Source: a virus (lineage: Duplodnaviria; Heunggongvirae; Uroviricota; Caudoviricetes). From it: a stretch of 13,998 nucleotides of DNA. Made by a program: the position numbers and the translations under genes. A model generated the notes under the pieces. The model was not told where the DNA came from and searched no databases. It saw nothing but the letters and a program-made list of their open reading frames with translations. Below, piece by piece: positions 1 through 13,998 of this stretch. Location of the stretch: positions 1-13,998 of the IMG/VR virus record IMGVR_UViG_2740892233_000016, one strand, 5' to 3'. Position 1 is the first letter of the stretch. Each line of letters begins with the position of its first letter.

Positions 1-1242
1 ATGGCGAGAAAAACACACCCATTAACCACAGTGCAGATCAAAGCAGCCAGACCAGCGCAAAAGGAGTACACCCTGCAGGACGGCGGAGGGCTTTTTCTCC
101 TGGTCAAACCGTCTGGATCAAAACTCTGGAGATTTTCCTACTACCGACCATCGGACAAAAAAAGAATATTGCTGAGTTTTGGATCGCTTGAAGATGTTTC
201 CCTGGCTGATGCCAGAAAACGCCGTAGCGAGTACAGGACGTTAATCAGTGCCGGAACTGACCCGCAGGACCACGAGAGGCAAAAAAGAGAGACAGAGGCC
301 CGAAGACAAGGGAACACGTTCGAAAATGTGGCGGCGGCATGGTACCAGGTGAAAATCAGCCAGAATCTGGCCCCCAACACGATTAAAGACATCTGGCGTT
401 CGCTGGATAAATATGTATTCCCGTTCATCGGCAACACGCCAATAGATACCCTCACCGCCCGAAGGTTCGTTGAAGTGCTTACCCCCATCAAGGAGCGCGG
501 CAACCTGGAAACACTCAAGCGGGTTTTACAGCGCGTTAATGAGGTAATGGATTACGCCGCCAACAGTGGGCTGATTGATGCCAATCCGGCTATGAATGTG
601 CGTAAGGCGTTTCCCTCACCTGTAAAAAAACATATGCCAACAATCCGCCCCGAACAGCTGCCCGAGCTTATGCAGGCTTTATCAGTATCGGCAACAGAAC
701 GGCAGACCAGATTACTGATTGAATGGCAGTTACTGACCGTAACCCGTCCCGCCGAAGCGTCATCAACGCGGTGGGATGAAATCAACCTGGACGCGAAGCA
801 ATGGACGATACCTGCCGGACGCATGAAGATGCGCAGGGATCACGTTATCCCGCTTTCCGGTCAGGCTATGGCGGTGCTGGAGGCCATGAAACCAATCAGC
901 CACCACCGCAATTACGTTTTCCCAAGTCTGAAAGACCCACAGCAGCCGATGAACAGCCAGACAGCTAACGCAGCATTGCGGCGTATGGGATTCGCTGGCG
1001 TGCTGGTGTCTCATGGATTACGCGCCATATTCAGCACAGCAGCGAACGAGGAAGGATTCGAGCCGGACGTAATAGAGGCGGCACTTGCCCACGTCGACAC
1101 CAACGAAGTTAGACGGGCATACAACCGGAGCAACTACATAGAAAAACGCATCGTGCTGATGCGCTGGTGGGGCGAATTTGTCGAGGCTGCGGCGACGGGC
1201 GTAACCCTCGCCAGTGGTAAAAGGGGTATCCGAGCCGTGTAG
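1..1242 (+). CDS. int: Tyrosine integrase, P4-like family
   Basis: 413 aa; N-terminus ...LQDGGGLFLLVKPSGSKLWRFSYY... typical of P4-type integrase arm-binding domain; C-terminal catalytic region with ...HGLRAIFSTAA... and ...AHVDTNEVRRAYNRSNY... (catalytic Tyr region). Stop TAG at 1240..1242. Confidence 0.93.
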   Translation: MARKTHPLTTVQIKAARPAQKEYTLQDGGGLFLLVKPSGSKLWRFSYYRPSDKKRILLSFGSLEDVSLADARKRRSEYRTLISAGTDPQDHERQKRETEARRQGNTFENVAAAWYQVKISQNLAPNTIKDIWRSLDKYVFPFIGNTPIDTLTARRFVEVLTPIKERGNLETLKRVLQRVNEVMDYAANSGLIDANPAMNVRKAFPSPVKKHMPTIRPEQLPELMQALSVSATERQTRLLIEWQLLTVTRPAEASSTRWDEINLDAKQWTIPAGRMKMRRDHVIPLSGQAMAVLEAMKPISHHRNYVFPSLKDPQQPMNSQTANAALRRMGFAGVLVSHGLRAIFSTAANEEGFEPDVIEAALAHVDTNEVRRAYNRSNYIEKRIVLMRWWGEFVEAAATGVTLASGKRGIRAV

Positions 1243-1319
1243 CTGTACAGAAAACCAGTAAAAACTACGAAAACCATGTAAAACCGTCGTATAATTGCAT
1301 CAAATTTAACGACAAGGCC

Positions 1320-1571
1320 GTGAAACATGAAACCGTTAAGATGCAAAAAAATATCAGATGCAATTGCGACGGGCTGCAACTGGCCCTGATGGTTCAGCAT
1401 GAATTTTGGTCAACCTACGATCCGGAGGACAGAACGACGGCCCCATCAAAAAAACAGGTAGTAGATTTTCTGGTATCCCGTGGCGCTTCCAGAAATCTGG
1501 CGGTAAGTATTGATAAGGTCGTACGTCCGGCATCTATGAAGATCGGAGGCAGGCCCAAAAAATGGCGGTAA
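1320..1571 (+). CDS. Hypothetical protein (83 aa)
   Basis: ORF between int and alpA, immediately followed by a clean intrinsic terminator; no recognisable family; weak RBS (AAGG). Confidence 0.35.
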   Translation: MKHETVKMQKNIRCNCDGLQLALMVQHEFWSTYDPEDRTTAPSKKQVVDFLVSRGASRNLAVSIDKVVRPASMKIGGRPKKWR

Positions 1572-1582
1572 CAATCCTGGAA

Positions 1583-1605
1583 GCGGCAGAAATGCCGCTT
1601 TTTTT
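1583..1605 (+). terminator. Rho-independent terminator
   Basis: GCGGCA-GAAA-TGCCGC hairpin followed by T7 run. Confidence 0.6.
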
Positions 1606-1634
1606 ATAATTCCATTTCAAATCATCAATATAAA

Positions 1635-1672
1635 AAACGGTGTATACCGTTTAAAAACGGTGGGAACTGTTT
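1635..1672. promoter_or_regulatory. Cluster of AAACGGT/ACCGTTT half-site repeats upstream of alpA (putative operator)
   Basis: AAACGGT(1635..1641), ACCGTTT(1646..1652), AAACGGT(1655..1661), ACTGTTT(1666..1672) forming overlapping inverted repeats about 70-100 bp upstream of the alpA start. Confidence 0.3.
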
Positions 1673-1738
1673 TTACCCATATCCGATGATTTACCGTATT
1701 TGTCACCGGAATACACCGGATTCACAAGGTAAATCACG

Positions 1739-1945
1739 ATGGAAGCAATCAGAAAAATTATCTTTCGCCAGGAAGTAAAAAAAATTATCCACATCAAGGC
1801 AGACAGCACGCTGCAAAGCATGATCAACGCCGGAGAATTTCCGCAGGGTTTTCGCGTTGGTTTACGCCGTCGCGGATGGTATGAGGATGATGTGTTGTCC
1901 TGGCAGAAAGAACGCGAAGAGGAAGCACGCGGAACGGCTGCTTAA
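1739..1945 (+). CDS. alpA: AlpA-family (prophage CP4-57-type) transcriptional regulator
   Basis: 68 aa; ...STLQSMINAGEFPQGFRVGLRRRGWYEDDVLSWQ... matches the AlpA helix-turn-helix signature (..AGEFP.P.K.G.R...W...V..W). Confidence 0.85.
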   Translation: MEAIRKIIFRQEVKKIIHIKADSTLQSMINAGEFPQGFRVGLRRRGWYEDDVLSWQKEREEEARGTAA

Positions 1946-2093
1946 CGGGTATCACAGATATGACAAACACGAAAAAAGCGGCCCCGATATGGAGCCGCCT
2001 TTCTGAACAATTAACCCGCTGCGCCTTATGTGTATGTGATCCCAAACATAAGCACGGGGATGATAGCCGCTATCAGGCTGGTGGGCAATGCAA

Positions 2094-2282
2094 TCAGTCT
2101 GGTTCAGTTCGTTGCCATACCTGCAATGAGCGCTTTTCCCTGTACTCTTTAAGGAATTGCTCAAGGGCAAAAGCACATGGCGCGAATCTTTCTGATTCAT
2201 GCTCTATCTTTCTGCGCCGTCTTTTCCGTGCCGGTGATAATGTTTTGGTCAATTCTTTATCGGTCATTGTGTTGTCCTGCAT
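2094..2282 (-). CDS. Hypothetical small basic protein (62 aa; alternative start at 2267 gives 57 aa with AGGA RBS)
   Basis: Minus-strand ORF downstream of Arc-like gene 1; contains RKRRRRK basic stretch; antisense frame on + strand is open (typical of real coding DNA). Confidence 0.4.
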   Translation of the reverse strand: MQDNTMTDKELTKTLSPARKRRRRKIEHESERFAPCAFALEQFLKEYREKRSLQVWQRTEPD

Positions 2283-2324
2283 AGCAATGCGCCGTAATAC
2301 CTCACACCACGGCGCTGATAGTTT

Positions 2325-2498
2325 TTATCCTTTGGGTTCTATGCCGCGTTGCTGTAATTCTTTGCGGAGAACGCGTTTAATCCAAGTGGCTAAAGATGTG
2401 TCGCCATCGGCCTTAGCTGCTTCTTCTAGCTGCGCTCTGAAGTCTTCCGGTAATCGCATTTGGTATGGAGGCGAACGTTTTTCTAATGGTGTTGACAT
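2325..2498 (-). CDS. Arc-like ribbon-helix-helix repressor (57 aa), module 1
   Basis: Not in the ORF track (<60 aa). Translation MSTPLEKRSPPYQMRLPEDFRAQLEEAAKADGDTSLATWIKRVLRKELQQRGIEPKG has the RHH pattern (beta strand ..MRLPEDF.. then two helices). RBS GAAGGG 8 nt upstream; start codon overlaps the divergent promoter/operator. Confidence 0.7.
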   Translation of the reverse strand: MSTPLEKRSPPYQMRLPEDFRAQLEEAAKADGDTSLATWIKRVLRKELQQRGIEPKG

Positions 2499-2538
2499 GG
2501 TAATTACCCTTCATTACTATACCTACATGGTAATTACC
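2492..2538 (+). promoter_or_regulatory. Rightward sigma70-like promoter (TTGACA-N17-TACTAT) with two copies of palindromic operator GGTAATTACC
   Basis: TTGACA 2492..2497, TACTAT 2515..2520; 14-mer ACATGGTAATTACC at 2495..2508 and 2525..2538 (palindrome cores 2499..2508 and 2529..2538, exactly 30 bp apart), overlapping spacer and +1. Confidence 0.55.
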
Positions 2539-2628
2539 ATTGTACTTGCCATTACACAAAAATCAACGCCCCGCAGTGCTGGGAACACATACGGGGCGTC
2601 TAACCAACAACGTAAACTAGGAGCCGTT

Positions 2629-3189
2629 ATGGTTGCCGTAAATCATATACCACACCTTGTACACACACAAACGGCCTTTGTGTGGCGTTTTCTGGCCCTG
2701 AATATCGGAGAAAAAAACCAGTTGATCGCCAGTGTCGAAAATAGCTATGATTCCCGCGCACCTCATAAAACGGGTGCCGGGATTGGCGTCCTGGGCAAAA
2801 CTGAAGCGCATAACACGCGCCCCGCGTGTTTTTTTGTGCCGCATAGTCACACCTTATCAATGGTGGGCTGTACGGGGGCGGAGCAATCCGCGCCGGTTTC
2901 TTCAGTGTCCGGTTACGCCAACCCTGTACAGTCCGCCACCAGCGAAATTGGCGTTTCCGGTGGCGGTTATCTTAACCACACTGAGGAGGCTGCCAACATG
3001 GCTACTATCCCTACCCTTGTACATTCTCAAACCGCCTTTCTCTGGCGCTTTATCATCTTTGGCGCGTCAGAACATCAAATCATCCACGTAACCGCCTGGA
3101 CGGAACGCGAAGCGCGTAGCCGTTGCCCGTCCGGTTGTGTTGCTGTATTCGCCGCCCGTATTCGTCAGGAGGTGTGCCATGTGCAATAA
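2629..3189 (+). CDS. Early-operon protein with internal tandem repeat of a small domain ending ...FAARIRQEVCHVQ (possibly Icd-like family; unverified)
   Basis: 186 aa from ATG 2629 with strong RBS AGGAG (2619..2623); two internal copies of motif ...LVH(T/S)QTAF(V/L)WRF(L/I)... ; the ORF-track 409-aa ORF is an upstream run-through of this frame. Confidence 0.6.
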   Translation: MVAVNHIPHLVHTQTAFVWRFLALNIGEKNQLIASVENSYDSRAPHKTGAGIGVLGKTEAHNTRPACFFVPHSHTLSMVGCTGAEQSAPVSSVSGYANPVQSATSEIGVSGGGYLNHTEEAANMATIPTLVHSQTAFLWRFIIFGASEHQIIHVTAWTEREARSRCPSGCVAVFAARIRQEVCHVQ

Positions 3190-3400
3190 AACCACACCGG
3201 ACGCAGCAGCCGCCGCGCTCACTACGCTGATGCACGCGCTTATCGATATTGAATGCACTGCAGAGCTTGCGCAGGGAGAAGAACAGAAAGACCGGACACA
3301 GTTCGCCCTGGAATGTATCCGATACATCGCAACGCGGTCGCTGAATGACGCTAAAAATATTCTTGTTGCTGATTGTGAAAATGGGGGGGGTTATGCGTGA
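3179..3400 (+). CDS. Hypothetical protein, N-terminal half of module-1 gene 2 (split relative to module-2 homolog)
   Basis: ATG 3179 overlaps stop of upstream gene (ATGTGCAATAA), RBS AGGAGG; homolog of N-terminal half of 4481..4945; terminated just after a G8 tract (3383..3390). Confidence 0.5.
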   Translation: MCNKTTPDAAAAALTTLMHALIDIECTAELAQGEEQKDRTQFALECIRYIATRSLNDAKNILVADCENGGGYA

Positions 3401-3614
3401 TGATCGTTTTAATTCCCTGAAACAAGAATTTTCCGGCGTTCCTGATGATGCGGCTGATGCGCTTTCGTCAATATCTGAAATTATGCGGGTGGCTTTTTTC
3501 TTTCTTTGCACTGATGAGCACAGAGATACAGGGCTAAATATTCTTGATATTGCCGCTAACTATGCTGATTTCGTGACAGAAGCTGTTTTAAGAAAAACAA
3601 CGGACGGGGATTAA
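3393..3614 (+). CDS. Hypothetical protein, C-terminal half of module-1 gene 2 (MRDDRFNSLKQEFSGVPDD...)
   Basis: Starts at ATG 3393 with the G8 tract acting as Shine-Dalgarno; near-identical at nucleotide level to 4713..4800 of the module-2 fused gene. Confidence 0.5.
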   Translation: MRDDRFNSLKQEFSGVPDDAADALSSISEIMRVAFFFLCTDEHRDTGLNILDIAANYADFVTEAVLRKTTDGD

Positions 3615-3615
3615 T

Positions 3616-3849
3616 ATGCGTGATATTTACCACGAAACAATAGACCGCGCATTTAGTGCCCTTGCTTACGCTGAAGGTATGTACGAAATATTGCGCATAT
3701 GGCTTGAAACACTTGGCGACAATGAACGCGACAAACAAAAATCAAGAATTGCCACGGCATTAATAACGCTTCTTGATCCTGTAATAATGGAACTGCAAGA
3801 AATAGATCTATTGCACGACAGATATAACGAACAGCACACCGGAGAATAA
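3616..3849 (+). CDS. Hypothetical protein (77 aa), module 1
   Basis: MRDIYHETIDRAF...; paralog of 4938..5171 (about 85 percent aa identity); start overlaps the preceding stop (TAATATG). Confidence 0.6.
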   Translation: MRDIYHETIDRAFSALAYAEGMYEILRIWLETLGDNERDKQKSRIATALITLLDPVIMELQEIDLLHDRYNEQHTGE

Positions 3850-3873
3850 AAATAATGAAACTTAAATATTCTG

Positions 3874-3883
3874 NNNNNNNNNN
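3874..3883. other. Run of 10 N (gap or masked bases) at junction between module 1 and module 2
   Basis: Directly seen; truncates a gene start MKLKYS... (ATG 3855) that is the paralog of 5177..5476. Confidence 0.9.
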
Positions 3884-3905
3884 TACACCACGGCGCTGAT
3901 GGTGA

Positions 3906-4085
3906 TTACTCTGGTTCTTTGGCCTTGCGCCGCTGGCGATATTCAACTTCTCGTTTTAATGCTGCAGTAACAAATTGCCCCGTACTTTCGCCAGGCATTT
4001 TTACCGCCTCAACATTGTTCATAACTTCATGCGGAACCCTTGCCGCAACGGTTTGTGATTTTGCGTTTACTGCTTTTGTCGCCAT
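3906..4085 (-). CDS. Arc-like ribbon-helix-helix repressor (59 aa), module 2
   Basis: Not in the ORF track (<60 aa). Translation MATKAVNAKSQTVAARVPHEVMNNVEAVKMPGESTGQFVTAALKREVEYRQRRKAKEPE; RBS GAGGGG 8 nt upstream; divergent from the module-2 promoter. Confidence 0.65.
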   Translation of the reverse strand: MATKAVNAKSQTVAARVPHEVMNNVEAVKMPGESTGQFVTAALKREVEYRQRRKAKEPE

Positions 4086-4135
4086 GTGGTGTACCCCTCA
4101 TAAAAAACAAATGCAGTATGCAGGAAAAAAAATAA

Positions 4136-4187
4136 GTGTTCAACACTTGACGTGTTTAACACCTGGGTTTAAATTGGTGTTCAACAC
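4136..4187 (+). promoter_or_regulatory. Rightward promoter (TTGACG-N17-TAAATT) with three copies of near-palindromic operator GTGTT(C/T)AACAC
   Basis: Sites at 4136..4146, 4152..4162, 4177..4187; -35 TTGACG 4147..4152, -10 TAAATT 4170..4175. Confidence 0.5.
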
Positions 4188-4284
4188 CTTGTTGGCGCAA
4201 GGTGCAGAAACGACGAAACCCGGCAGTGCGCTAACACTAACCGGGCTTCTAACCACCAACGATAGCGAAAGTATCGAGGTAGCT

Positions 4285-4491
4285 ATGAGAAATCATACCA
4301 CACACCCGCAAGGGCGGGACTCGCACAACCTGAATAAATACATCTGGCGTTTTATCGCCCTGAGCACGGCACAACCGCGCGTGATTACCATTGAGGCCAC
4401 CAGCGAACAGGAAGCACGCCAGCAATCTCCGGCTGGCTGCGTGATGGTATTCGCTGCCCGTATTCGTCAGGAGGTGTGCCATGTGCAATAA
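4285..4491 (+). CDS. Small protein ending ...FAARIRQEVCHVQ (single-domain paralog of 2629..3189; possibly Icd-like)
   Basis: 68 aa from ATG 4285 (RBS GAGG); C-terminal 25 aa nearly identical to C-terminus of 2629..3189; the ORF-track 190-aa ORF is an upstream run-through crossing the promoter. Confidence 0.55.
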   Translation: MRNHTTHPQGRDSHNLNKYIWRFIALSTAQPRVITIEATSEQEARQQSPAGCVMVFAARIRQEVCHVQ

Positions 4492-4945
4492 CATCCGTCC
4501 GGACGCAGCCGCCGAAGCCATCATAACGCTAATGCACGCGCTGATTGATATTTCTGTTATCGCAGACATGGCGCATAAGCACGCCACCAGTGAAACAGAA
4601 TATGCCGGGGCTTTCGTTCCTCATTCGCTGGCGGTTATGCAACTTAGTGCGGATATGGCGCTGAATGAGGCCAAAGCCATCCTGATTGCTGATTGTGAAA
4701 ATGGGGGGGTTATGCGTGATGATCGTTTTAATTCCCTGAAACAGGAATTTTCCGGCGTTCCTGATGATGCGGCTGATGCGCTTTCGTCAATGCCAGAACT
4801 TATTAGAGCGGCTTTTTTCTTACTTTCCACGAGAGAATATAAATCAACGGGGCTTGATGTACTGAATATCGCCGCCGATTATGCGGAATATGTGGCAGAG
4901 GCGCGTTATAGAAGAAAATTTCCTGAGGATGTAAGCCATGCGTGA
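4481..4945 (+). CDS. Hypothetical protein (154 aa), module-2 gene 2 (fused form)
   Basis: ATG overlapping upstream stop, RBS AGGAGG; reads through a G7 tract (4703..4709) where module 1 has G8. Confidence 0.6.
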   Translation: MCNNIRPDAAAEAIITLMHALIDISVIADMAHKHATSETEYAGAFVPHSLAVMQLSADMALNEAKAILIADCENGGVMRDDRFNSLKQEFSGVPDDAADALSSMPELIRAAFFLLSTREYKSTGLDVLNIAADYAEYVAEARYRRKFPEDVSHA

Positions 4946-5171
4946 TATTTACCACCAAACAATAGACCGCGCATTTCTTGCACTTTCTCACAGTGAAAAC
5001 ATGCTGGAAATATTGCGCATATGGCTTGAAACACTTGGCGACAATGAACGCGACAAACAAAAATCAAGAATTGTCACGGCATTAATAACGCTTCTTGAGC
5101 CTGTAATAAATGAGTTGCAGGAAATAGAGACATTGCACGACAGATATAACGAACAGCACACCGGAGAATAA
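4938..5171 (+). CDS. Hypothetical protein (77 aa), module 2
   Basis: MRDIYHQTIDRAF...; overlapping start/stop with the upstream gene. Confidence 0.6.
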   Translation: MRDIYHQTIDRAFLALSHSENMLEILRIWLETLGDNERDKQKSRIVTALITLLEPVINELQEIETLHDRYNEQHTGE

Positions 5172-5176
5172 AAATA

Positions 5177-5476
5177 ATGAAACTTAAATATTCTGGCTTA
5201 ACTGCCAGTGGCAACACTCACCCTAAATTTACGCGCGGTGATATTTACCGCGACCAGTACGGCGGCACGGTAATGATTAAGGGCGTGGCGGGACGGTGCG
5301 TAACTTACCGCCGTGAAGGTTACGAATATGATTGCGTGATGCCTGTTTATCAGTTCCGGCGTGATTTTTCTCTGGTACAGACCGCGCCGCATAACGTGCC
5401 CACCAGCAACGCCAGGGCACGGGCAAACATCCAGAAGCTGAAAACCATGATTAACGGATTCAGGGGCAAGAAATGA
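5177..5476 (+). CDS. Hypothetical protein (99 aa), translationally coupled to the rep-like gene
   Basis: Stop overlaps the rep start (ATGA at 5473..5476); the first 6 codons are duplicated at 3855..3873. Confidence 0.55.
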   Translation: MKLKYSGLTASGNTHPKFTRGDIYRDQYGGTVMIKGVAGRCVTYRREGYEYDCVMPVYQFRRDFSLVQTAPHNVPTSNARARANIQKLKTMINGFRGKK

Positions 5477-6873
5477 AAAGCGCACCGAACTTAAAAAAAC
5501 AGCCTTACGACAAGATGACCGAAGTCATTATTTTTGCGGGTAGTGATGCCTGGGCACATGCGAAACAGTGGCAGGAACAGGACGGGCGACTGGCTGGCGA
5601 TAATGTGCCTCCCGTTGTGCTGGCTGATGATCAACTGGATGAACTGGCAGACCTGAGAATCATCGACGAGGGGCGCTATTGTGTCCGGCTGTACAAGGCA
5701 GGCCACATCAGGCCATCAAATATTAATGCCATTGCGCACAAGCTGGCGGCGGCGGGTGTAACTGATGCGAATTATTACCCCGAAGGGATGCACAGCCATA
5801 TGCGGGAGAACTGGCGCGAATACCTGGAACGGGTGCGCGGGAAAGAGCCGGCGGAAGAAAAAAACCACCAGCGAAAAACCACGCTACCGATGAGCGTTGG
5901 ATCTACCGGATACGACACGCAACTGGATTACGTGGTTAAGGGGATTATTCCGGCGGTATCGCTATGCAGCATATACGGGGCTAGCGGGTCCTATAAATCA
6001 TTCCTTGCCGGATCGTGGGCGTGCCATGTTGCCACTGGTCGCCAGTGGGGAGGCCGCAGGGTTGCACATGGTGCGGTTCTCTATGTGGTTGGTGAAGGCG
6101 GTATAGGTGTTCCGCGTCGTGTAAAAGCCTGGGAGGTTGTGCACGATGAGCAGGTGAAAAATCTGTATCTGGTAAACCGCCCCATCTTTCCGGCTGCCCC
6201 GCTTGATGTTGATGAAATGGTTATCGCTGCCCGTCAGGTGGAGCGGGAAACGGGTAAACCTGTACGCATGATTATTCTGGATACGCTGGCGCGTTGCTTT
6301 GGTGGGAATGATGAAAATGATTCCCGTGATATGGGGGCGTTTATCCGTGGTTGTGACGAACTGAAACGACGCACAGGGGCCACGGTGCTGGTGGTTCACC
6401 ATTCCGGCAAGGATGAGACGAAAGGCGCGCGCGGTTCCAGTGCATTTCGTGCTTCGCTGGATGCTGAATACCGGATACGCAGGGAGGACGCAGGAAGCGA
6501 AGCGCTGGTTATCTCATGCACCAAAATGAAGGACGCGGAGGAACTCAAAGAAGCCGCATATGACTTACGCGTGGTGGAGCTTTTTACCGACGCTGACGGT
6601 GAATTAATCACGTCGCTGGTGGTGGTGGATGATCCGCGCCCTCCTGTTGAACTGGAGCGCATCGAGGAGGCAGGGAACAAGACGGAAAACCATACCGCGC
6701 TATGGGGGTGCATCCGTTCACGCACACAGAACGGCGACAAGTGCACGATCCCGCTGTTACGTGATGACATGAAAAAGCTGGGGTATGAAATGAAAAACTT
6801 CCGGCGCTGGCTGTACAAGCTGGAAAAAGATGGGGTTATTCGTATCGATGGGGATGATGTAGCGCCGCTATAA
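5473..6873 (+). CDS. RepA-like AAA ATPase / replicative helicase of the satellite (AAA_25-type)
   Basis: 466 aa; Walker A-like GASGSYKS, Walker B-like ...RMIILDTLARCF..., ...VLVVHHSGKD... motif typical of RepA/DnaB-like RecA-fold helicases; iterons begin at its stop codon. Confidence 0.8.
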   Translation: MKSAPNLKKQPYDKMTEVIIFAGSDAWAHAKQWQEQDGRLAGDNVPPVVLADDQLDELADLRIIDEGRYCVRLYKAGHIRPSNINAIAHKLAAAGVTDANYYPEGMHSHMRENWREYLERVRGKEPAEEKNHQRKTTLPMSVGSTGYDTQLDYVVKGIIPAVSLCSIYGASGSYKSFLAGSWACHVATGRQWGGRRVAHGAVLYVVGEGGIGVPRRVKAWEVVHDEQVKNLYLVNRPIFPAAPLDVDEMVIAARQVERETGKPVRMIILDTLARCFGGNDENDSRDMGAFIRGCDELKRRTGATVLVVHHSGKDETKGARGSSAFRASLDAEYRIRREDAGSEALVISCTKMKDAEELKEAAYDLRVVELFTDADGELITSLVVVDDPRPPVELERIEEAGNKTENHTALWGCIRSRTQNGDKCTIPLLRDDMKKLGYEMKNFRRWLYKLEKDGVIRIDGDDVAPL

Positions 6874-7063
6874 AAGTGAGGAGCAAAAGCGAGGGGGATA
6901 GAAAGAGGGCCAAAATTAGCCCGCTCTCCCTCACTTTTCGACCTGTATACATCCTCAAAAGTGAGGGGTAAAAAAATACTTATGAAACACACACATAGAA
7001 AAACCGAAAATCCCAACTGCGACGAAGTGAGACGCTTGAAAAAGTGAGGCGAAAAAGTGAGAG
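6873..7063. repeat. Iteron array AAAGTGAG(G/A) (putative replication origin)
   Basis: Direct copies at 6873, 6958, 7042, 7055 (plus GAAGTGAGA 7024 and degenerate AAAGCGAGG 6885, AAAGAGGG 6902) and one inverted copy CCTCACTTT 6929..6937; AT-rich stretch 6968..7010 between them. Confidence 0.6.
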
Positions 7064-7073
7064 GTTGCGAGAA

Positions 7074-7293
7074 ATGACCCAAAAACGCAGAGACAGAACA
7101 GAGCCAAAATATAAAGCGTTAGACATGACTGAGCACACCTTAAAGGTGGCAATCAGAACGATAGACCGCCACACGCGGGAAGGATACGCGAAGGAACATC
7201 CCGACCTGATAAGCGCATTCATGACCACGGCGGCGGCAAACTTTGCCACGCTGACAGAACGGGAGATTGCCGAAGCGGAACAGGTAACAACCA
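7074..7293 (+). CDS. Hypothetical protein, 3' end obscured by N run
   Basis: ORF from ATG 7074 (MTQKRRDRTEPKYKALDMTEHTLK...) running into the N run at 7294..7303; true stop unknown. Confidence 0.35.
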
Positions 7294-7303
7294 NNNNNNN
7301 NNN
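7294..7303. other. Run of 10 N (gap or masked bases)
   Basis: Directly seen. Confidence 0.9.
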
Positions 7304-7319
7304 CCGGAGAGGTGGAATT

Positions 7320-7730
7320 ATGACGGCACAGATAGCCGCTTACGGGCGGCTGGTGGACGACCCGCAGGTAAAACAGACCAGCAAGGGCACACCGATGACG
7401 CTGGCGCGTATGGCGGTATCTTTGCCATGCAGCCAGGCACAGGACGGACAGGCGACGTTATGGTTATCGGTCATCGCATTTGGCAAACAGGCCGACTTCC
7501 TGGCTAAACATCAAAAAGGCGATGTTGCCAGCGTATCCGGCACGATGCAGGTAAGCCAGTGGACCGGACAGAACGGAGAAACGCGGCAGGGCTGGCAGGT
7601 TATCGCAGACAGCGTAATCAGTGCCCGCGCGGCACGTCCAGGCGGGAACAGACGCAAAACCACAGGCACACAGGGTAATCAGCCACCAGCGGGAGGCGAT
7701 GACCCTTACGGTGATGATATTTCGTTCTGA
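7320..7730 (+). CDS. ssb: Single-stranded DNA-binding protein
   Basis: 136 aa from ATG 7320 (RBS GGAGAGGTGG); OB-fold pattern aligns with E. coli SSB (..GRLVDDPQVK.. / ..WLSVIAFGKQADFLAKHQKGDVASVSG..QVSQWTGQNGETRQ..), acidic C-terminal tail ...DDPYGDDISF. Confidence 0.85.
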   Translation: MTAQIAAYGRLVDDPQVKQTSKGTPMTLARMAVSLPCSQAQDGQATLWLSVIAFGKQADFLAKHQKGDVASVSGTMQVSQWTGQNGETRQGWQVIADSVISARAARPGGNRRKTTGTQGNQPPAGGDDPYGDDISF

Positions 7731-7740
7731 GGGGGTGACG

Positions 7741-8013
7741 ATGGTACATGACCGCATAGCGGAGGAACTGGAGGCGAAAGGCTTTTACCGGAGGGCGGCG
7801 GCGCGATGGGGTGAAGTCATGCAGCTGGTGGAGACAGACAAGGAACGGCATCACATCACGATGCGACGGCTGGAATGTTCAAGGAAGGCACAGAGGGCAC
7901 CGGAGCCGCCGGATAATTTCGGAGACCTGAAAAAGGCAGTCGATCGCACTTATGCCGAAATGGGTATAGATGGTGCTGGTGATGAAATATGGCGCAATTA
8001 CCAGGACAGCTAA
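7741..8013 (+). CDS. PerC-like transcriptional regulator
   Basis: 90 aa; N-terminus MVHDRIAEELEAKGFYRRAAARW... resembles the PerC-family N-terminal signature (recalled from memory; needs HMM confirmation). Confidence 0.55.
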   Translation: MVHDRIAEELEAKGFYRRAAARWGEVMQLVETDKERHHITMRRLECSRKAQRAPEPPDNFGDLKKAVDRTYAEMGIDGAGDEIWRNYQDS

Positions 8014-8019
8014 TCAAAC

Positions 8020-8043
8020 AGCCGGAGAAATCCGGCTTTTTTT
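8020..8043 (+). terminator. Rho-independent terminator (AGCCGGA-GAAA-TCCGGCT + T7)
   Basis: Perfect 7-bp stem, GAAA loop, T-run. Confidence 0.65.
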
Positions 8044-8139
8044 GCACCAGTTGAAACGGTATGGCGCATTACCGGGTTTTCGTCACGGTCAGGCATAGTT
8101 ACTATCTGAAACAAACAGACACAACAGAGGAAAAAAACA

Positions 8140-8364
8140 ATGCCGATGAAATTTGATGAGATATTAAAACAGCGTGATAAATACCATGCTGACAACATGG
8201 AGACGATGAGCATCAATGATTACCGCGCATTCCTGGAGACGGGCGCACTGATTGAAAAGGATCAGCATGGTTTTGTGAGATGTGCTCTATCCGGTGAAAT
8301 GCTGGCGGTAAATCCTGAACAGATAGATGCATTGATAGAATTTCTGAAAGAGATCAGAGACTGA
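8140..8364 (+). CDS. Hypothetical protein (74 aa)
   Basis: RBS GAGG upstream of ATG; followed by two terminators. Confidence 0.5.
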   Translation: MPMKFDEILKQRDKYHADNMETMSINDYRAFLETGALIEKDQHGFVRCALSGEMLAVNPEQIDALIEFLKEIRD

Positions 8365-8383
8365 GCCAGCACACAGCACACAT

Positions 8384-8406
8384 AGCCGGAGCAATCCGGC
8401 TTTTTT
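8384..8406 (+). terminator. Rho-independent terminator (AGCCGGA-GCAA-TCCGGCT + T6)
   Basis: Near-identical to the hairpins at 8020 and 10658. Confidence 0.65.
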
Positions 8407-8412
8407 GCGCCC

Positions 8413-8454
8413 AAAAAAAGCCCGATAAGGTCAGAGGGTTCTTATCGGGCTTTT
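8413..8454. terminator. Bidirectional terminator-like hairpin (A7 - GCCCGATAAG...CTTATCGGGC - T4)
   Basis: 10-bp perfect stem with 11-nt loop, flanked by A-run and T-run. Confidence 0.5.
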
Positions 8455-8510
8455 GCATATGAGGTTTTTGGATGCACTGGCGTTCGTGATCGGGATAATC
8501 ATTTCATAAT

Positions 8511-8580
8511 TTGCAACATAACTCAATATCATTGCATAAAATGCAATTCTGATTATAATCAGGACTGGATGAACATCCAG
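8511..8580 (+). promoter_or_regulatory. Late (morphogenesis) promoter region: TTGCAT-N16-TATAAT embedded in three perfect palindromes
   Basis: ATTGCATAAAATGCAAT (8531..8547), CTGATTATAATCAG (8549..8562, contains TATAAT), CTGGATGAACATCCAG (8565..8580); the downstream operon starts at 8616. Confidence 0.5.
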
Positions 8581-8615
8581 TTATGATTTTTTAAGTCGAA
8601 GAGGAATTTCTTACT

Positions 8616-8822
8616 ATGGCTGAAGAGAAAAAAGGCGGTGTTTCGGTGTACATAAGCCCCGACATCGTGAAGGCGCTCAAGGAACGCCACCAGCAGAACG
8701 TAAAAGCAGGCATTGCGGCAGGACTTGATCCGCTGGCGATGGTTGAGCCGTCAACAGGCTGGCAGGTCCGCGCCTATTTACGCGCGGCGCTGGGCATGAA
8801 TCAGACGCATGGAGGTGAATAA
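8616..8822 (+). CDS. Hypothetical protein (68 aa), translationally coupled to the capsid gene
   Basis: Stop TAA overlaps capsid ATG (TAATGG); RBS GAGGAA upstream. Confidence 0.5.
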   Translation: MAEEKKGGVSVYISPDIVKALKERHQQNVKAGIAAGLDPLAMVEPSTGWQVRAYLRAALGMNQTHGGE

Positions 8823-9877
8823 TGGCAGGCAAAGCAACGGCACTTAACACTAACCAGCTTTTCGCGTACCTGAATCGCGGGGATATTGCAGAATTTAAAT
8901 TCAGTCCGCTGTTTACCACGCTGTTTTTCCCGAACGTGGCGACCTTCAACACCCAGAACATCATGCTGGACACCCTGGACATTGAAGAGGTTACGATGTC
9001 AGCGTTCTGTTCGCCTATGGTGGGTAGTCAGGTCCAGCGCGATAAAGGGTACGAAACCAGCACGATTAAACCAGGCTACATGAAACCCAAACACGAAATC
9101 GATCCAACAAAAACCATCATGCGCATGGCTGGAGAAGATCCGGCACAGCTTAACGATCCTACCTATCGCCGTATGCGCCTGATTACTGGCAACATGCGCC
9201 GCCAGATAAACGCCATTAAGGCACGCGTGGAATGGCTGGCGGTGAATGCGGTAACGACCGGAAAAAACCTCATTGAGGGCGAAGGCATAGAACGCTATGA
9301 AATCGACTGGAAGATCCCGGAAAGCAATATCATAGAACAGGCTGACGGTAAAAAATGGTCTGAGCTGGATAAAGAAACACACGATCCAATCTATGACATC
9401 GAGCTTTATGCTGATCAGGGCAATTGCCCCGCAAACGTCATGATTATGGGCGCTGAAGTATGGCGCACGTTACGCAGCTTTAAAAAATTCCGCGAACTGT
9501 ACGACCTTTCCCGTGGTTCAGAATCCGCCGCAGAACTGGCCTGTAAAAACCTGGGTGAAGTGGTGAGCTTTAAAGGCTATCTGGGCGATATTGCCCTTGT
9601 CGTCTATTCCGGCAAATACACTGACAGCGACTGCACCGAAAAATATTTCCTTGAGCCTGATTTGCTGGTCCTGGGTAACACCAACAATAAAGGGCTGGTG
9701 GCCTATGGTGCGATTATGGATCAGGAAGCGGTCAGAACGGGCGCAACGCAAAACATGTTTTACCCGAAAAACTGGATTGAGGACGGCGATCCGGCGATTG
9801 AGTACGTGCAGACGCACAGCGCACCGCAGCCGGTACCGGCAGATATTCGCAAATTTGTTACCGTCAAAATTGGTTAA
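8822..9877 (+). CDS. Major capsid protein, lambda gpE-like
   Basis: 351 aa; collinear similarity to lambda gpE: FKFSPLFTTLFF vs FKFDPLFLRLFF; KPGYMKPKHEIDP vs TPGYVKPKHEVNP; EDPAQLNDPTYRRMRLI vs EDPQNLADPAYRRRRII; SFKGYLGDIALVVYSGKY vs SYKGMYGDVAIVVYSGQY; FYPKNWIEDGDPAIEY..HSAP vs RYPKNWVTTGDPAREF..QSAP. Confidence 0.9.
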   Translation: MAGKATALNTNQLFAYLNRGDIAEFKFSPLFTTLFFPNVATFNTQNIMLDTLDIEEVTMSAFCSPMVGSQVQRDKGYETSTIKPGYMKPKHEIDPTKTIMRMAGEDPAQLNDPTYRRMRLITGNMRRQINAIKARVEWLAVNAVTTGKNLIEGEGIERYEIDWKIPESNIIEQADGKKWSELDKETHDPIYDIELYADQGNCPANVMIMGAEVWRTLRSFKKFRELYDLSRGSESAAELACKNLGEVVSFKGYLGDIALVVYSGKYTDSDCTEKYFLEPDLLVLGNTNNKGLVAYGAIMDQEAVRTGATQNMFYPKNWIEDGDPAIEYVQTHSAPQPVPADIRKFVTVKIG

Positions 9878-9889
9878 CGGGGGGATTCT

Positions 9890-10225
9890 ATGGACACTCC
9901 ATACATTGAGTTATTTGCAGGTAGTCAGCAGGTATCCACGACGCTGGTACATTTTGCTGCTGATGCTGGCGTTATTCAGGAATTTACCCCGCTGATGCTG
10001 GCGGAAAATGGCGAGTTTAAGCCGTGGGATGGTCAGGAATCTGGCAAGGCTGTTTATCTGACCTCGTACCCCGTGGACACGTCGACGCAGAAATCAGCAC
10101 AGTGCTACAAGACGGGGATATTCAATATTGCCGCCGTTAACTGGCCTGAGAGCGCCGACACCGACGCGAAAAAATGCGCCGCCTTTGCGGGTTCTGGCGT
10201 ATCCGTTCAGCCGCTGGCGCGATAA
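9890..10225 (+). CDS. Head decoration protein, lambda gpD-like
   Basis: 111 aa; TPLMLAENGEFKPWDG... and ...CYKTGIFNIAAVNWPESADTDAKKCAAFAGSGVSVQ parallel lambda gpD TPLMLDTSSRKLVAWDG... and ...[36 protein letters not shown]. Confidence 0.85.
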   Translation: MDTPYIELFAGSQQVSTTLVHFAADAGVIQEFTPLMLAENGEFKPWDGQESGKAVYLTSYPVDTSTQKSAQCYKTGIFNIAAVNWPESADTDAKKCAAFAGSGVSVQPLAR

Positions 10226-10237
10226 GCAGGGGGAACG

Positions 10238-10651
10238 ATGGCAACGAATGAAAGTATCATGACGCTACCGCTGGCGAGTAAATTTAAAGCCGAAGCGCGG
10301 GCAATGGCTGACAGAGGTTTATCAACCTACGAGGCCGTATATCAACTTAACAGCCTGGAAGAGAAGGACAAGCCGCGCGCTGATGCGATTATGGCGCTTC
10401 ATGAATCTGACGACTATCAGCCGCTGTTACGTGCAATGGCAAACGTGCCTTGTATTGATGTTGATACGGCTAAAAACATCCTGAACATGACCATAGAGCA
10501 GGAACGCCCGAAGGTTGCACCAGAGCTTACCGCAGCCTTTGAAAACTTTATGGACATGCACAGCCCACAAGCCGTATCAGCTGGCATGGCATACGATGGC
10601 AGAAACCCGGGCGATGACGGCGACATCGATCGCATACTGAAAACCATCTGA
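10238..10651 (+). CDS. Hypothetical protein (137 aa) in the capsid module
   Basis: RBS GGGGGAACG; follows gpD-like gene; ends at a terminator; no recognised family. Confidence 0.55.
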   Translation: MATNESIMTLPLASKFKAEARAMADRGLSTYEAVYQLNSLEEKDKPRADAIMALHESDDYQPLLRAMANVPCIDVDTAKNILNMTIEQERPKVAPELTAAFENFMDMHSPQAVSAGMAYDGRNPGDDGDIDRILKTI

Positions 10652-10657
10652 GACAAG

Positions 10658-10679
10658 GCCGGAGAAATCCGGCTTTTTT
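10658..10679 (+). terminator. Rho-independent terminator (GCCGGA-GAAA-TCCGGC + T6)
   Basis: Third copy of the same hairpin sequence. Confidence 0.65.
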
Positions 10680-10703
10680 GCGGGTCCTTTCCGGCATATG
10701 GAC

Positions 10704-10745
10704 CTGTTACGGGGCGGAGACCTCGCGGATTTTCGCTATTTATGA
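10704..10745 (+). other. cos site 1 (lambda-type cosN, variant cohesive-end sequence GGGCGGAGACCT at 10712..10723)
   Basis: CTGTTACG-GGGCGGAGACCT-CGCGGATTTTCGCTATTTATGA matches the lambda cos junction GTTACG-GGGCGGCGACCT-CGCGGGTTTTCGCTATTTATGA with 2 mismatches; lies about 145 bp upstream of the Nu1-like gene, as in lambda. Confidence 0.7.
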
Positions 10746-10818
10746 GCCTTTTCAGGGGGGTGGTGGTGGTTTTGTTGTTTGATCTATCTTTATGAATGAA
10801 AAGGGAAAGATGCAAGCA

Positions 10819-10854
10819 ATACACCAACCTGAAGCAGTAATTAAGTTGGTGTAT
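10819..10854. repeat. Perfect 10-bp inverted repeat ATACACCAAC-N16-GTTGGTGTAT abutting the Nu1-like start codon
   Basis: Directly seen; right arm ends 2 nt before the ATG at 10857. Confidence 0.6.
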
Positions 10855-10856
10855 TA

Positions 10857-11399
10857 ATGAAATCTCATCTGATGAACAAAAAAAACATGGCGAAAAGCTG
10901 CCGTGTAAGTGCGACAGCGTTCGACAAGTGGGGAGTAACTCCCGTTGAGCGTAAAGGCCGTGAGGCGTTTTATGATGTTGCCAGCGTGATAGAAAATAGG
11001 GTTAACAATGCAATTAGCCAGCTTATAAACGACAAAGGCGAGATTGACGATGATGAACTTTTACGAGTCAGGATCAGATTACTGACAGCACAGGCAGAGG
11101 CGCAGGAACTTAAAAACGATCGCGATCGCGGTGACGTGATTGATACTGAGTTTTGCCTGTACGCGCTTTCAAAGCTGGCGAGTCAGATTTCATCAATCAT
11201 GGACATCCTCCCGCTTACTATGCAAAGGAGCTTCCCACAGATTACCCCCGCCATGCTGGACAGGCTTAAAAGGGAAGTGGTTAAAGCCTGTAATGCCAGT
11301 GCCAGAGTTGCCGACAACCTCCCACAGATACTGGCTGATTACTTGAAAGAAACAACCGGAAACGTACCGGAAAAGTTGCTACAGAAGAAAGGCGAGTAA
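10857..11399 (+). CDS. Terminase small subunit homolog, lambda Nu1-like (possible packaging-redirection factor)
   Basis: 180 aa vs lambda Nu1 181 aa; LTAQAEAQELKNDRDRGDVIDTEFCLYALSKLASQISSIMDILPLTMQRSFPQ vs lambda LTRAQADAQELKNARDSAEVVETAFCTFVLSRIAGEIASILDGLPLSVQRRFPE; N-terminal DNA-binding region is similar but more diverged. True start may be the second ATG (10872). Confidence 0.85.
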   Translation: MKSHLMNKKNMAKSCRVSATAFDKWGVTPVERKGREAFYDVASVIENRVNNAISQLINDKGEIDDDELLRVRIRLLTAQAEAQELKNDRDRGDVIDTEFCLYALSKLASQISSIMDILPLTMQRSFPQITPAMLDRLKREVVKACNASARVADNLPQILADYLKETTGNVPEKLLQKKGE

Positions 11400-11427
11400 C
11401 AGACGCGCAATTATTGAACAAAAATGA

Positions 11428-11489
11428 GAAAGGATCTGATAATGGCATTTTCTGGCTAAAATGCCTCGTGTCAGATCCTTTCTTTTTTT
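11428..11489 (-). repeat. Nested inverted repeat GAAAGGATCTGA...TCAGATCCTTTC + T7 (cosB R-element-like for cos site 2; could also act as terminator for the Nu1-like gene)
   Basis: 12-bp perfect outer arms (11428..11439 / 11471..11482) with inner hairpin GGCATTTT-CTGGCT-AAAATGCC; same position and architecture as the lambda cosB repeat GAAAGGAAACGACAG...CTGTCGTTTCCTTTC relative to cosN. Confidence 0.55.
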
Positions 11490-11573
11490 AATATTTTCAT
11501 TGTTAAACAGTCTGTTACAGAGAAGAAGATCGGATCTGACTTTTGCCGGAAAATTCTCATAAACAGATAAAAA

Positions 11574-11596
11574 CCGCGAGGTCGCCGCCCCGTAAC
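11574..11596 (-). other. cos site 2 (exact lambda cosN including cohesive-end sequence GGGCGGCGACCT, minus orientation)
   Basis: + strand CCGCGAGGTCGCCGCCCCGTAAC is the exact reverse complement of lambda GTTACGGGGCGGCGACCTCGCGG; adjacent reverse-strand sequence TTTATGAGAATTTTCCGG matches lambda TTTATGAAAATTTTCCGG. Confidence 0.65.
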
Positions 11597-11654
11597 GGGC
11601 CATAATTCCAGGAAGGACCCGACGACACCAGACTATCAGAGCGATGGGGGCACA

Positions 11655-11936
11655 ATGACAGAAGCCGAACTACTGGGATTAATCCGCCGCGTCGCCGGAA
11701 TCAGCCAGCAGCATGACGAACAGGCCACACAGCCGGACAGCGTGACCGCTGAAAATTATGTGCGTGTTGTAGCGGAAGTGATGCGCCGTGATGGTATAGA
11801 ACTTAATGGCGTTGATATGCGCAACATACGGAACCGCGTTCTTGAAATGCTGGCCTACAATCGCCGCGTTGAACTGTATCGGGAGAAAGAAAAAATAACG
11901 TACCACTGGAAGAAGCCGGAACGGCTGCGGCGGTAA
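11655..11936 (+). CDS. Hypothetical protein (93 aa)
   Basis: ORF with RBS GGGGG; no recognised family. Confidence 0.45.
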   Translation: MTEAELLGLIRRVAGISQQHDEQATQPDSVTAENYVRVVAEVMRRDGIELNGVDMRNIRNRVLEMLAYNRRVELYREKEKITYHWKKPERLRR

Positions 11937-12024
11937 CTTGCTGATATTCCCGATAACGCAAAATTGCGCTGGCTACATCCCTCACATCTGAGGACTGTTA
12001 ACCAGAAGGCCGGAATATATTCAC

Positions 12025-12047
12025 AAACTACGAAATTTTCGTAGTTT
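12025..12047. repeat. Perfect 23-bp palindrome AAACTACGAAA-T-TTTCGTAGTTT near right junction
   Basis: Directly seen; 11-bp perfect arms. Confidence 0.6.
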
Positions 12048-12537
12048 AATTAATGGTCAGATTAATCGCTAACCCGCTGATATTTTCGGAAACCTCAATT
12101 TGAGGAAGTCGGAAGCGTCACCCTTCATATTCTGAATGGTCATAATGACCACGCAGACCATCAAGGCAACCACAACGAACATCGTTACGGTTGGAGCTTT
12201 TACCCCACTGGGGGAAAGGTATTACGATAATCATAACACCTACCGAACAGGTAAAACCCACCAGCCTGATTAACAGTTAACCGGAAAAAAAATCCGGTAG
12301 CCCCGTTATGGGGATCCCCATATCGACATTAACGCCCCTCATGAATTGGTGCGCTTCCCCCTGGAAAGATTACCCGCCTGTATATTTCTTGTGTCTATTT
12401 GTTCCACGTTGTTTCATACAGTGCACCGAACGGTGTAGTTAATGGTGTAGTCAATTTGCTGTTTTTAGCACTTTTTGCAGTGTGTGTTGTTTAATTAAAT
12501 CAATGGGTTGCCTTGCTGTGGTGATAAAAGGACATAT

Positions 12538-13998
12538 TTATTCATCTTTCGGCGCAGAATGCTGGCGACCAAAAATCACCTCCATCCGCGCACCGCCCAG
12601 CATGCTCTCTCCGGCGACGATTTTACCCTCATATTGCTCGGTGATTTCGCGGGCTACCGCCAGCCCTACACCTTGCCCAGGGCGTAAAGTATCAACCCGT
12701 TGACCACGGTCGAAAATGACCTCTCGCTTGCTTAATGGAATACCGGGGCCATCATCCTCGACCACAATATAGAGATGCTCGTCGGTTTGCCTTGCAGAAA
12801 TTTCGACAAACTCGAGGCAATATTTACAGGCATTATCCAGCACGTTGCCCATCACCTCGACAAAATCGTTCTGCTCACCGACAAAGCTGATCTCTGGCGA
12901 AATATCGAGAGAGATATTGACCCCTTTGCGTTGATACACTTTGTTCAGCGCTGAGGTGAGATTGTCCAGCAGTGGGGCGACCGGATGCAGCTCGCGGCTG
13001 AGCAATGTCCCGCCGCGCATACTGGCACGATGCAGGTAGTAGCCAATTTGCTGTGAAATGCGGCTGATTTGCTCCAGCATTACCGGCTCAGCATCACTGA
13101 CGCTCATCTTTTCACTACGCAGAGAACGCAGCGTACTTTGCAGCACCGCCAGTGGCGTTTTCAGACTATGGGTCAGGTCGGTGAGCGTCGTACGGTATTT
13201 GTCGTAACGTTCGCGTTCACTTTTTAACAATCGGTTCAGGTTTCGTACCAGACTGGTCAGTTCTCGCGTTGTGGCTGGATTGAGCAATTCGCGGTTATGT
13301 TCTTCCAGTTCGCGGACTTCTTTTGCCAGGGCTTCGATGGGGCGTAAACTCCACCAGGCGGCGACCCACAGCAGCGGGATCACTAACAGCAGATTGGCTG
13401 AGAGCACATAGATAAACCAGCTCCAGACCATATAGGAACTTTTTAGCTCCACCGGAATGGTATCCACCACCACAATGGTTAATTTTGGCATCCGCGATGT
13501 TGCCGGGTAGACGTTTACTGCCACCGAGTGGGTCATCTCCGCGTCGTCATCATCTTCCCGCACTTCCTGCAACTGTTGCTGTATCGAATGATCTCCACTC
13601 AGCAAGAGGCTGGTATCGTTAACATCCGCTTCAATTTCATGAAAACCATTCGATTTCAGCCAGTCAGGCTGGATCATCTTCATCAGCCAGGGCACGTCAC
13701 GTTGCGCCCATAAAAGCTGCCCGTTCTCATCATAAATTAGCGTCATGGTGGGGCTTTGCTTGTCGATATTTTCGGGTAACTCGACATGCAACTTATTGTT
13801 TTCCCACTTCGCAAGGGTATAGAACAGATTGCTCTCGCCACGTAACAGCCGAAACGTAGTTTTATCGAAACTGACGCTATAACCGATCAGCGCGACCATT
13901 CCGTAGGCAAGCGAAAGCACCAGTACTACCGCAGCCGTTGCCAACAGAAAACGTACCCGCAGTGAGAGCGGGAAAAAAAGACGCAGTAATTTTTTCAT
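12538..13998 (-). CDS. phoQ: Sensor histidine kinase PhoQ
   Basis: 486 aa; translation matches E. coli PhoQ along its length as recalled ([60 protein letters not shown]... , H-box ...[13 protein letters not shown]..., ATP-binding domain ...DDGPGIP...[12 protein letters not shown]...). Confidence 0.97.

Follow-up and report, generated by a model that had tools for sequence, protein, structure and literature searches.

Two convergent lambda-type cos sites around a small terminase gene in an Escherichia coli satellite island, and their possible role as a dual-specificity packaging module

Why should a phage satellite carry two packaging sites that face each other across a single gene? This question is raised by a DNA stretch of 13,998 nucleotides (IMG/VR virus record IMGVR_UViG_2740892233_000016, positions 1 to 13,998; the whole stretch is hereafter called the window), in which two lambda-type cos sites, cos1 on the + strand and cos2 on the − strand, bracket a gene encoding a Nu1-like protein. 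Judged from its sequence, the window is a Gram-negative cos-type phage-inducible chromosomal island (PICI) of the EcCICFT073 family, in which the presence of two cos sites is already known. Both sites of the prototype EcCICFT073 are functional, since lambda and phi80 can transduce a plasmid that carries either of them (Fillol-Salom et al. 2018, ISME J, PMC6092414; followed by a 2019 study in Mol Cell, PMC6739421); the authors found no phage cosB in that island and left open the reason for having two sites (PMC6092414, PMC6739421). A literature search for inverted or paired cos sites returned nothing beyond these 2018 and 2019 papers and the 2022 review of Murialdo and Feiss, which treats only the site proximal to the rpp gene of that island and proposes an R3 equivalent at bp 48-65 (PMC9026076). 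Cos islands are not the subject of a 2026 Sci Adv paper on lateral transduction, and no published explanation of the orientation, nature or purpose of the second site was found in this search. Beyond the published work, we describe a form of the cassette that carries a small terminase gene (terS), a cos1 of N15 type, an exchangeable cos2 that mimics a helper site, the lack of direct pairs and an exact inversion polymorphism. We propose, with a probability of about 0.6, that the pair is a dual-specificity packaging module, in which cos1 would be private to the island and cos2 would be of helper type, the convergent arrangement would avoid deletion from one cos to the other, and inversion of the inner segment would be a by-product.

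The 23-nt core of the lambda cosN, GTTACGGGGCGGCGACCTCGCGG, was found twice in the window, in convergent orientation, when compared with a lambda reference made by fetching the ends of NC_001416 and joining them at the junction; the lambda cos sequence used in the original prediction agrees with this junction. The expected number of chance matches to this core is 0, as 200 shuffled versions of the window gave no match. The cosN1 copy with its flanks (10706-10728, + strand) matches lambda at 22 of 23 positions, and its cohesive-end 12-mer, GGGCGGAGACCT (10712-10723), carries the single change that had been predicted, a C-to-A at 10718. The cosN2 copy (11574-11596, − strand; 12-mer at 11579-11590) matches at 23 of 23 positions. 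Each copy lies in an inverted-repeat arm, delimited by a repeat search. The left arm (10681-10756, + strand) contains cosQ and cosN of cos1 together with the beginning of its cosB side, and the right arm (11546-11621, − strand) contains the core of cos2. Inverted repeats had thus been correctly anticipated, but at roughly 25-40 bp their size was underestimated: the arms are 76 nt each, 79% complementary, and include cosQ. The cosQ sequence GGGTCCT, an invariant column block in the cos alignment, is present at 10682-10688 (+ strand) for cos1 and at 11614-11620 (− strand) for cos2, and the distance from the start of cosQ to the 12-mer is 30 nt in lambda, cos1 and cos2 alike. Both sites are complete cosQ-cosN units aimed at each other, and each is also accompanied by candidate R elements at a fixed distance from cosN, as in a lambda-type cos. 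A promoter and terminator scan of positions 10600-11700 gave three promoter-like sites versus 1.3 expected, and the sole terminator called was cosN itself.

The gene between the sites (terS, 10857-11399, + strand) encodes a protein of 180 amino acids, its likely true start being M6 at 10872. The protein matches the Pfam family PF07471 (Phage_Nu1) with an E-value of 7.9e-23 and 81.3 bits (cutoff 30), and phrog_57, terminase small subunit, with an E-value of 2e-51 over residues 1-174. It is 36% identical to lambda Nu1 over residues 6-166 of 180, a range that includes the C-terminal stretch by which Nu1 binds the large terminase (PMC9026076). Among 50,697 phage genomes, its closest phage relative is N15 gp1 (44% identity), the N-terminal DNA-binding region being especially alike. 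On these grounds, the protein is a full Nu1-family small terminase, for which binding to cosB and to a large terminase is predicted by homology. An identity with Rpp (RppA, RppB and RppC, 139-154 amino acids) was also considered and rejected, as no Rpp chain was matched in the PDB. A protein of 144 amino acids at the same place in a sibling island at the phoQ site (L007) does match RppC (6HLK) at 5e-31.

The original prediction had regarded the region that follows cos1 as unlike lambda and as having a run of seven G residues, where there are six (10755-10760). This region is not featureless: a (GGT)n tract at bp 48-62 occupies the place of R3 in phage N15, whose cosB contains R3 only. The N15 R3 was mapped to bp 48-60 by linker scanning mutagenesis (cited in PMC9026076), and the left end of N15 has GAGGTTGTTGTTT at these positions, counted from the first cohesive-end base. 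At the same coordinates cos1 has GGTGGTGGTGGTT (10759-10771), a GGT repeat instead of a GTT repeat, and the N15 sequence GGTTGTTGTTT at bp 51-60 corresponds to GGTGGTGGTT in the window. We therefore propose, from this positional match, that GGTGGTGGTGGTTTT (10759-10773, + strand) is the R3 of cos1. An R2-like element, AATACACCAACC (GGTTGGTGTATT on the other strand), lies at 10818-10829 on the − strand and is invariant in all terS leaders, and an R1-like element, GTTGGTGTATT, lies at 10845-10855 on the + strand and is variable among relatives. The two pair as a perfect inverted repeat of 11 nt. Together with the (GGT)n tract, these two related elements would give cos1 an R3/R2/R1-like layout. 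They also set cos1 apart from N15, as do the GGT unit and the lambda-like cohesive-end 12-mer; the exact N15 R3 is found at the same position in a cos half of sibling islands that we call type F. A leader of the cos1 type was present in 37 of the 37 terS-bearing loci whose left-hand cos was found, and it is the predicted binding region of the island TerS.

Two further observations concern variation at cos1. The A at 10718 is a minority variant among relatives. The proposed R3 region also varies (window 10755-10770; L011-L090), with G6 to G11 and two to four TGG units, and this G/TGG tract may be especially prone to slippage, by which the proposed R3 site would be tuned or would drift.

The second site has a different character. 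Along the − strand, cos2 is colinear base for base with the lambda cos, with R3, R2 and R1 at the same positions and in the same orientations. R3 is GTCAGATCCGATCTTCTT on the − strand (11523-11541, bp 50-68), R2 is GTCAGATCCTTTCTTTTT on the + strand (11470-11487, bp 104-121), inverted with respect to R3 and R1 as in lambda, and R1 is TCAGATCCTTTCTCATTTT on the − strand (11421-11439, bp 152-170 from the cos2 cohesive end), colinear with the R1 of lambda and with that of a complete E. coli prophage, L092. A short hairpin read from the sequence between R2 and R1 (11444-11465) stands where lambda has a stem-loop. The lambda-like GTTTATGAGAATTTTCCGG and the nested inverted repeats that had been noted after cos2 are indeed present (11421-11439 with 11471-11489, and 11470-11487 with 11523-11540). 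The colinearity ends where the ATG of Nu1 would stand, and the stop codon of the convergent terS is found there instead, in keeping with the earlier remark that the cos2 strand runs antisense into the 3′ end of the Nu1-like gene. The site thus shares with lambda the 23-mer of cosN, the cosQ spacing and the arrangement of the R elements, and TerS itself aligns to Nu1; it differs in having the repeat core TCAGATCC, not CGTTTCC, and in having no Nu1 gene after it, and the DNA-binding region of TerS is unlike that of Nu1.

The TCAGATCC core was traced to a group of lambdoid phages. Prophage L092 has an identical cosN, three TCAGATCC repeats as R3, R2 and R1, and then its own lambda-like Nu1, TerL, W and portal genes, and an L092-like phage arrangement with these repeats was found in at least 38 IMG/VR contigs. 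One lambdoid prophage of TCAGATCC type lies in E. coli AF19 (NZ_OZ547000, about 258 kb). Between the Nu1 of L092 and the island TerS, identity is only 31%. Since the repeats are those of the L092 group and TerS is this distant from the corresponding Nu1, cos2 looks like a site for the helper's own terminase.

The TCAGATCC-type cos region was also seen in a different satellite-like element of E. coli (L091, VTB97432v, ~4001-4284), whose genes encode a DUF927 primase, SSB, ProQ/FinO, PerC and DUF1441, so that the same helper-type site appears to serve unrelated islands. Phages with a TCAGATCC-type cosB (L004, which is the SerU-LTIIb remnant, and several IMG/VR contigs) carry at least three cosN sequences, of lambda, GGGTCTGGGGACGCGC and GGGGCGGAAGCGTCGC type, suggesting that cosB and cosN specificities assort independently among lambdoid phages. 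A reverse open reading frame (ORF) of 74 amino acids that spans cosN2 and cosB2 (11379-11603, − strand) had no family match, overlaps the packaging signals and is probably spurious.

To place the pair in its family, we surveyed 80 IMG/VR loci anchored on the scaffold-like gene that precedes cos1, together with added E. coli loci. This gene (10238-10651, + strand; 137 amino acids; phrog_1999, E = 4e-63) resembles the C-terminus of lambda C/Nu3 and forms the constant left flank of the cassette. The constant right flank is a conserved ORF of 93 amino acids (11655-11936, + strand; phrog_1561, E = 3e-58), which adjoins the right-hand cos in related loci. The counts of arrangements cover the 68 loci that are complete from one flank to the other. 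Exactly one + and one − cos were found in 53 of them, the terS-proximal cos alone in nine, and no cos in six, and two cos sites in direct orientation were found in none (0/68). That the pair results from two unrelated elements abutting was rejected, as the same flanks surround it in 53 of 68 loci.

Comparison of these loci showed a modular structure: the flanks retain their outer (cosQ) halves, cosQ being kept in every right arm, and the inner (cosB) halves move together with the cassette. Loci with the same terS have a distal cosB of at least three phage-like types, namely TCAGATCC, CATGTCG (like phage PhiR5_1) and 21/phi4-like; in those with rpp, it is of CATGTCCGG type or of exact N15 type. 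The proximal site co-varies with the gene, and phage-like specificities replace one another at the distal site. The design is repeated in islands from other hosts, where even the cosN 12-mers of the two sides may be unlike, such as GGGGTACGGATACGCGC on one and GGGGCGGCAGACGCGC on the other.

Two groups of islands in the survey have unusual cassettes. In L099, L100, L113 and L147, from other hosts, the TerS is chimeric, with a lambda/21-like N-terminus and the C-terminal half of the window TerS; their proximal cosB is 21-like, their distal cosB is of TCAGATCC type, and their cosN 12-mers are unlike on the two sides. In L047, L048, L050, L060, L063 and L071-L073 (~3477-4001), a convergent cos pair 524 bp apart encloses DNA that retains fragments of the 3′ end of rpp, one half being of CATGTCCGG type and the other of exact N15 type, in both orders. 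As they have no intact terS or rpp, these islands would rely wholly on outside packaging proteins.

The survey also bears on whether cos2 does anything at all. It ends exactly at the expected start of a phage Nu1 gene, and nine relatives live without a second cos, as might be expected if it were a functionless relic of a phage cos region captured once. However, cos2 has a perfect cosN 23-mer and an intact cosQ, and none of its three R sites is damaged. A second cos is retained in 53 of 68 loci; it has not decayed but has given way to other complete phage-type cosB modules, and in islands from other hosts the arrangement appears again with different cosN types. The cos2 of EcCICFT073 is, moreover, functional. 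We thus consider a relic very unlikely.

How two such sites could coexist is suggested by the rules of lambda packaging, in which the start requires cosN and cosB and the end requires cosQ and cosN in the same polarity (PMC6739421). In the window, cos1, directly upstream of terS, would be the private site of the island, read by the N15-gp1-like TerS. TerS would then recruit the large terminase of the helper, which the lambda-like C-terminal region that it keeps should allow. The other site, cos2, would be usable directly by the unmodified terminase of a cognate helper. Each cos would start a run in its own direction that ends only at the next copy of itself in the concatemer, so that either site would yield a full island. 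With a direct pair, runs would start at one site and end at the other, and the terS segment would be deleted or duplicated. Convergent sites could not terminate each other's runs, which would explain why no direct pair was found. The inverted arms would also let the inner segment flip and cosB modules pass between islands. We infer both the partner of each site and this stability argument.

The published experiments on EcCICFT073 help to weigh this proposal. Deletion of its cos1 lowers transfer of the island and deletion of both sites abolishes it (PMC6092414), and Rpp acts only through cos1, the gene-proximal site (PMC6739421). According to the supplementary Figure S5 of these authors, cos.1 leads into rpp and cos.2 enters the 3′ end of rpp in antisense, so that this pair is convergent too. 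EcCICFT073 and the window also share the integrase, alpA, rep, capsid-like and scaffold-like genes, the cassette and the 93-amino-acid ORF in the same order, as well as two cos sites of lambda type, in which cosQ and cosN are conserved, and a gene-proximal site that is the specific one; a sibling island at the same phoQ site (L007) has rpp between two cos sites. The two islands differ in the cassette itself: the window encodes a full-length TerS of 180 amino acids with its C-terminal region where EcCICFT073 encodes an Rpp of 144 amino acids, the proximal cosB has (GGT)n on the top strand versus ACCACCACC, and the distal one is of TCAGATCC versus CATGTCCGG type.

Several points weigh against a dual-specificity module. 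Deletion of the EcCICFT073 cos2 raised transfer by lambda and phi80, the second site being costly and of no benefit with those helpers (PMC6092414). Nine relatives persist with a single cos, and a cohesive-end base of cos1 (10718) is altered in the lineage of the window. Among about ten genomes with a TCAGATCC-type cos2 island, none had a contig of the corresponding phage, a comparison made by hand on contig-name identifiers with incomplete prophage detection, and helpers may be external. Finally, the binding of TerS to (GGT)n and its pairing with a helper TerL are deduced from homology and position. The rise in transfer after loss of cos2, seen with non-cognate helpers, would also fit the cost of a second key that is not needed.

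The same rise has another possible meaning, because it shows cos2 competing with cos1 (PMC6092414). Cos2 copies a helper-type cosB, and interference with helper packaging is known for PICIs of the EcCICFT073 family (PMC6739421); cos2 could thus be a decoy or competitor that attracts the helper terminase to the island DNA or diverts it into unproductive cutting and so lowers helper packaging, serving interference and not transfer. However, cos2 has cosQ, cosN and all R sites, and a run begun there should finish productively at the next cos2. Nor would a decoy need its cosQ intact, but this element is conserved in all right arms, and the EcCICFT073 cos2 by itself is enough for a plasmid to be transduced (PMC6092414, PMC6739421). 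A decoy role is therefore unlikely and, of the three readings offered in the original prediction, a pure decoy is the least supported, given that cos2 is complete for packaging and that its counterpart transduces plasmids. Dual packaging entry is the best supported of the three: the R repeats of cos2 are those of a real lambdoid group, the cos1 leader goes with terS, and the EcCICFT073 sites are functional.

The remaining reading, that the segment between the sites is invertible, was addressed by examining its orientation in other assemblies, where both orientations were found. Positions 10746-11573, reversed in place, gave an end-to-end match at ~90% identity in five E. coli genomes, in two of which the annotated terS lies on the other strand while the flanks are unchanged. 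The natural and the computationally flipped arrangements of the rpp sibling match 15 and 64 genomes, respectively, in either state as one unbroken stretch of 1,551 nt at 100.0% identity, and the inner 727 nt of L007 are exactly the flipped inner segment of L032. The breakpoints lie within the shared cosN core. Polymorphisms of the arms have also been exchanged, some left arms having the spacer version of right arms and one lineage having the same rare base on both sides, and E/F cassettes occur in both orders. The prediction of inversion is thus borne out by natural polymorphism in siblings, but not in the lineage of the window itself, where no flip was found among ~336 genome records at least 99% identical over the 1,021-nt cassette, nor by any sign of a programmed switch.

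The latter point deserves attention, since a segment bounded by inverted repeats and found in both orientations in natural isolates recalls the Hin/Gin/Cin systems and shufflons. The pair could be such a switch, in which a flip would alter the expression of terS or rpp or the direction in which each specificity packages, so that packaging from the integrated island might be driven into either chromosomal flank. The two orientations at 100% identity in 15 versus 64 E. coli genomes, the independent flips of terS cassettes and the two orders of E/F cassettes would agree with this. In contrast to those systems, there is no dedicated invertase here: none was found in the cassette among the window ORFs and the annotation of relatives, terS being the only family-supported ORF between the arms. 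The repeats are packaging sites, and the flips track the length of perfect identity, the window arms having only 12 + 10 nt around the difference at 10718 versus ~48 identical nt in the rpp lineage that flips, as in passive homologous recombination. Orientation would, moreover, leave the packaged content unchanged on a circular or concatemeric substrate, and the ~336 records of the window lineage contain no flip. We therefore regard a programmed switch as quite unlikely. The dependence on perfect identity and the lack of an invertase mean that the pattern fits general recombination. Alternatively, inversion may proceed by cutting at both cosN sites and re-annealing; with the same overhang on both of its ends, the inner fragment could rejoin either way round.

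With regard to the island as a whole, the window matches, in many E. coli genomes, an island of ~11 kb adjoining phoQ. Its genes encode an integrase, a RepA-type helicase, SSB, PerC and a capsid-like protein, which, with the position beside phoQ, is the content of a PICI of the EcCICFT073 family, typically some 10-15 kb at a fixed chromosomal site with int, an alpA-type regulator and replication genes running in one direction. It is syntenic with the rpp island L007 and with L008, which is the reference island EcCIDi14 (PMC10111431). The cassette in the form of the window was found at a coverage of at least 80% in 487 of 5,426 complete E. coli genomes (~9%), and strains with a window-type island include O26, O103, O45 and O157. 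A scan of genome contigs with the scaffold protein as query confirmed no relatives, so the spread among species is drawn from IMG/VR only.

The head module (8616-10651) begins with an ORF of 68 amino acids (phrog_3255), followed by a lambda E-like major capsid gene (8822-9877), a D-like decoration gene (9890-10225) and the scaffold-like gene, and is without portal, protease and large terminase genes. The 137-amino-acid product of the scaffold-like gene aligns to positions 494-567 of 583 of the head maturation protease family phrog_53. It was also tried as a candidate Rpp and rejected, with no match in the PDB and a resemblance to the C-terminus of lambda-type head protease/scaffold proteins. 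Capsid genes are common in such PICIs and dispensable for transfer (PMC10111431). The left end of the window (1-3189) is unlike that of the O26/O157 relatives, whose match begins at 1972. Its integrase allele (1-1242) differs from theirs, and its ORF of 409 amino acids with an Ash domain (1960-3189) is intact, the counterpart in L001 being annotated as a truncated pseudogene.

The staphylococcal islands (SaPIs) offer a parallel, either with a satellite TerS that redirects the large terminase of the helper or with a copied helper cos (SaPIbov5), and two putative cos sites were noted in SaPIbov4 (PMC6092414). They differ in having Gram-positive hosts and unrelated proteins, and in the pac mechanism of those that bear a TerS. 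Whether the dual-specificity arrangement extends beyond the window is a more tentative matter. The convergent pair may be a general two-key cassette of enterobacterial satellites, combining a private site for TerS or Rpp with an exchangeable cos of the local lambdoid or N15-like phages, and having arms that act as recombination points for flipping and trading; we give this somewhat less than an even chance.

If true, such a cassette would account for the presence of two different cos sites in PICIs, the question raised in print, and the helper range of an island would be predictable from its distal cosB. PICIs carry virulence and defence genes between enteric bacteria, and the comparison offers a sequence-based guess at which phages mobilise a given island. 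The (GGT)n tract becomes a site where a satellite terminase of N15 type may bind, and there is evidence that recombination at the packaging sites themselves reshuffles packaging specificity. The comparative picture thus makes the two-site question of the EcCICFT073 authors directly testable.

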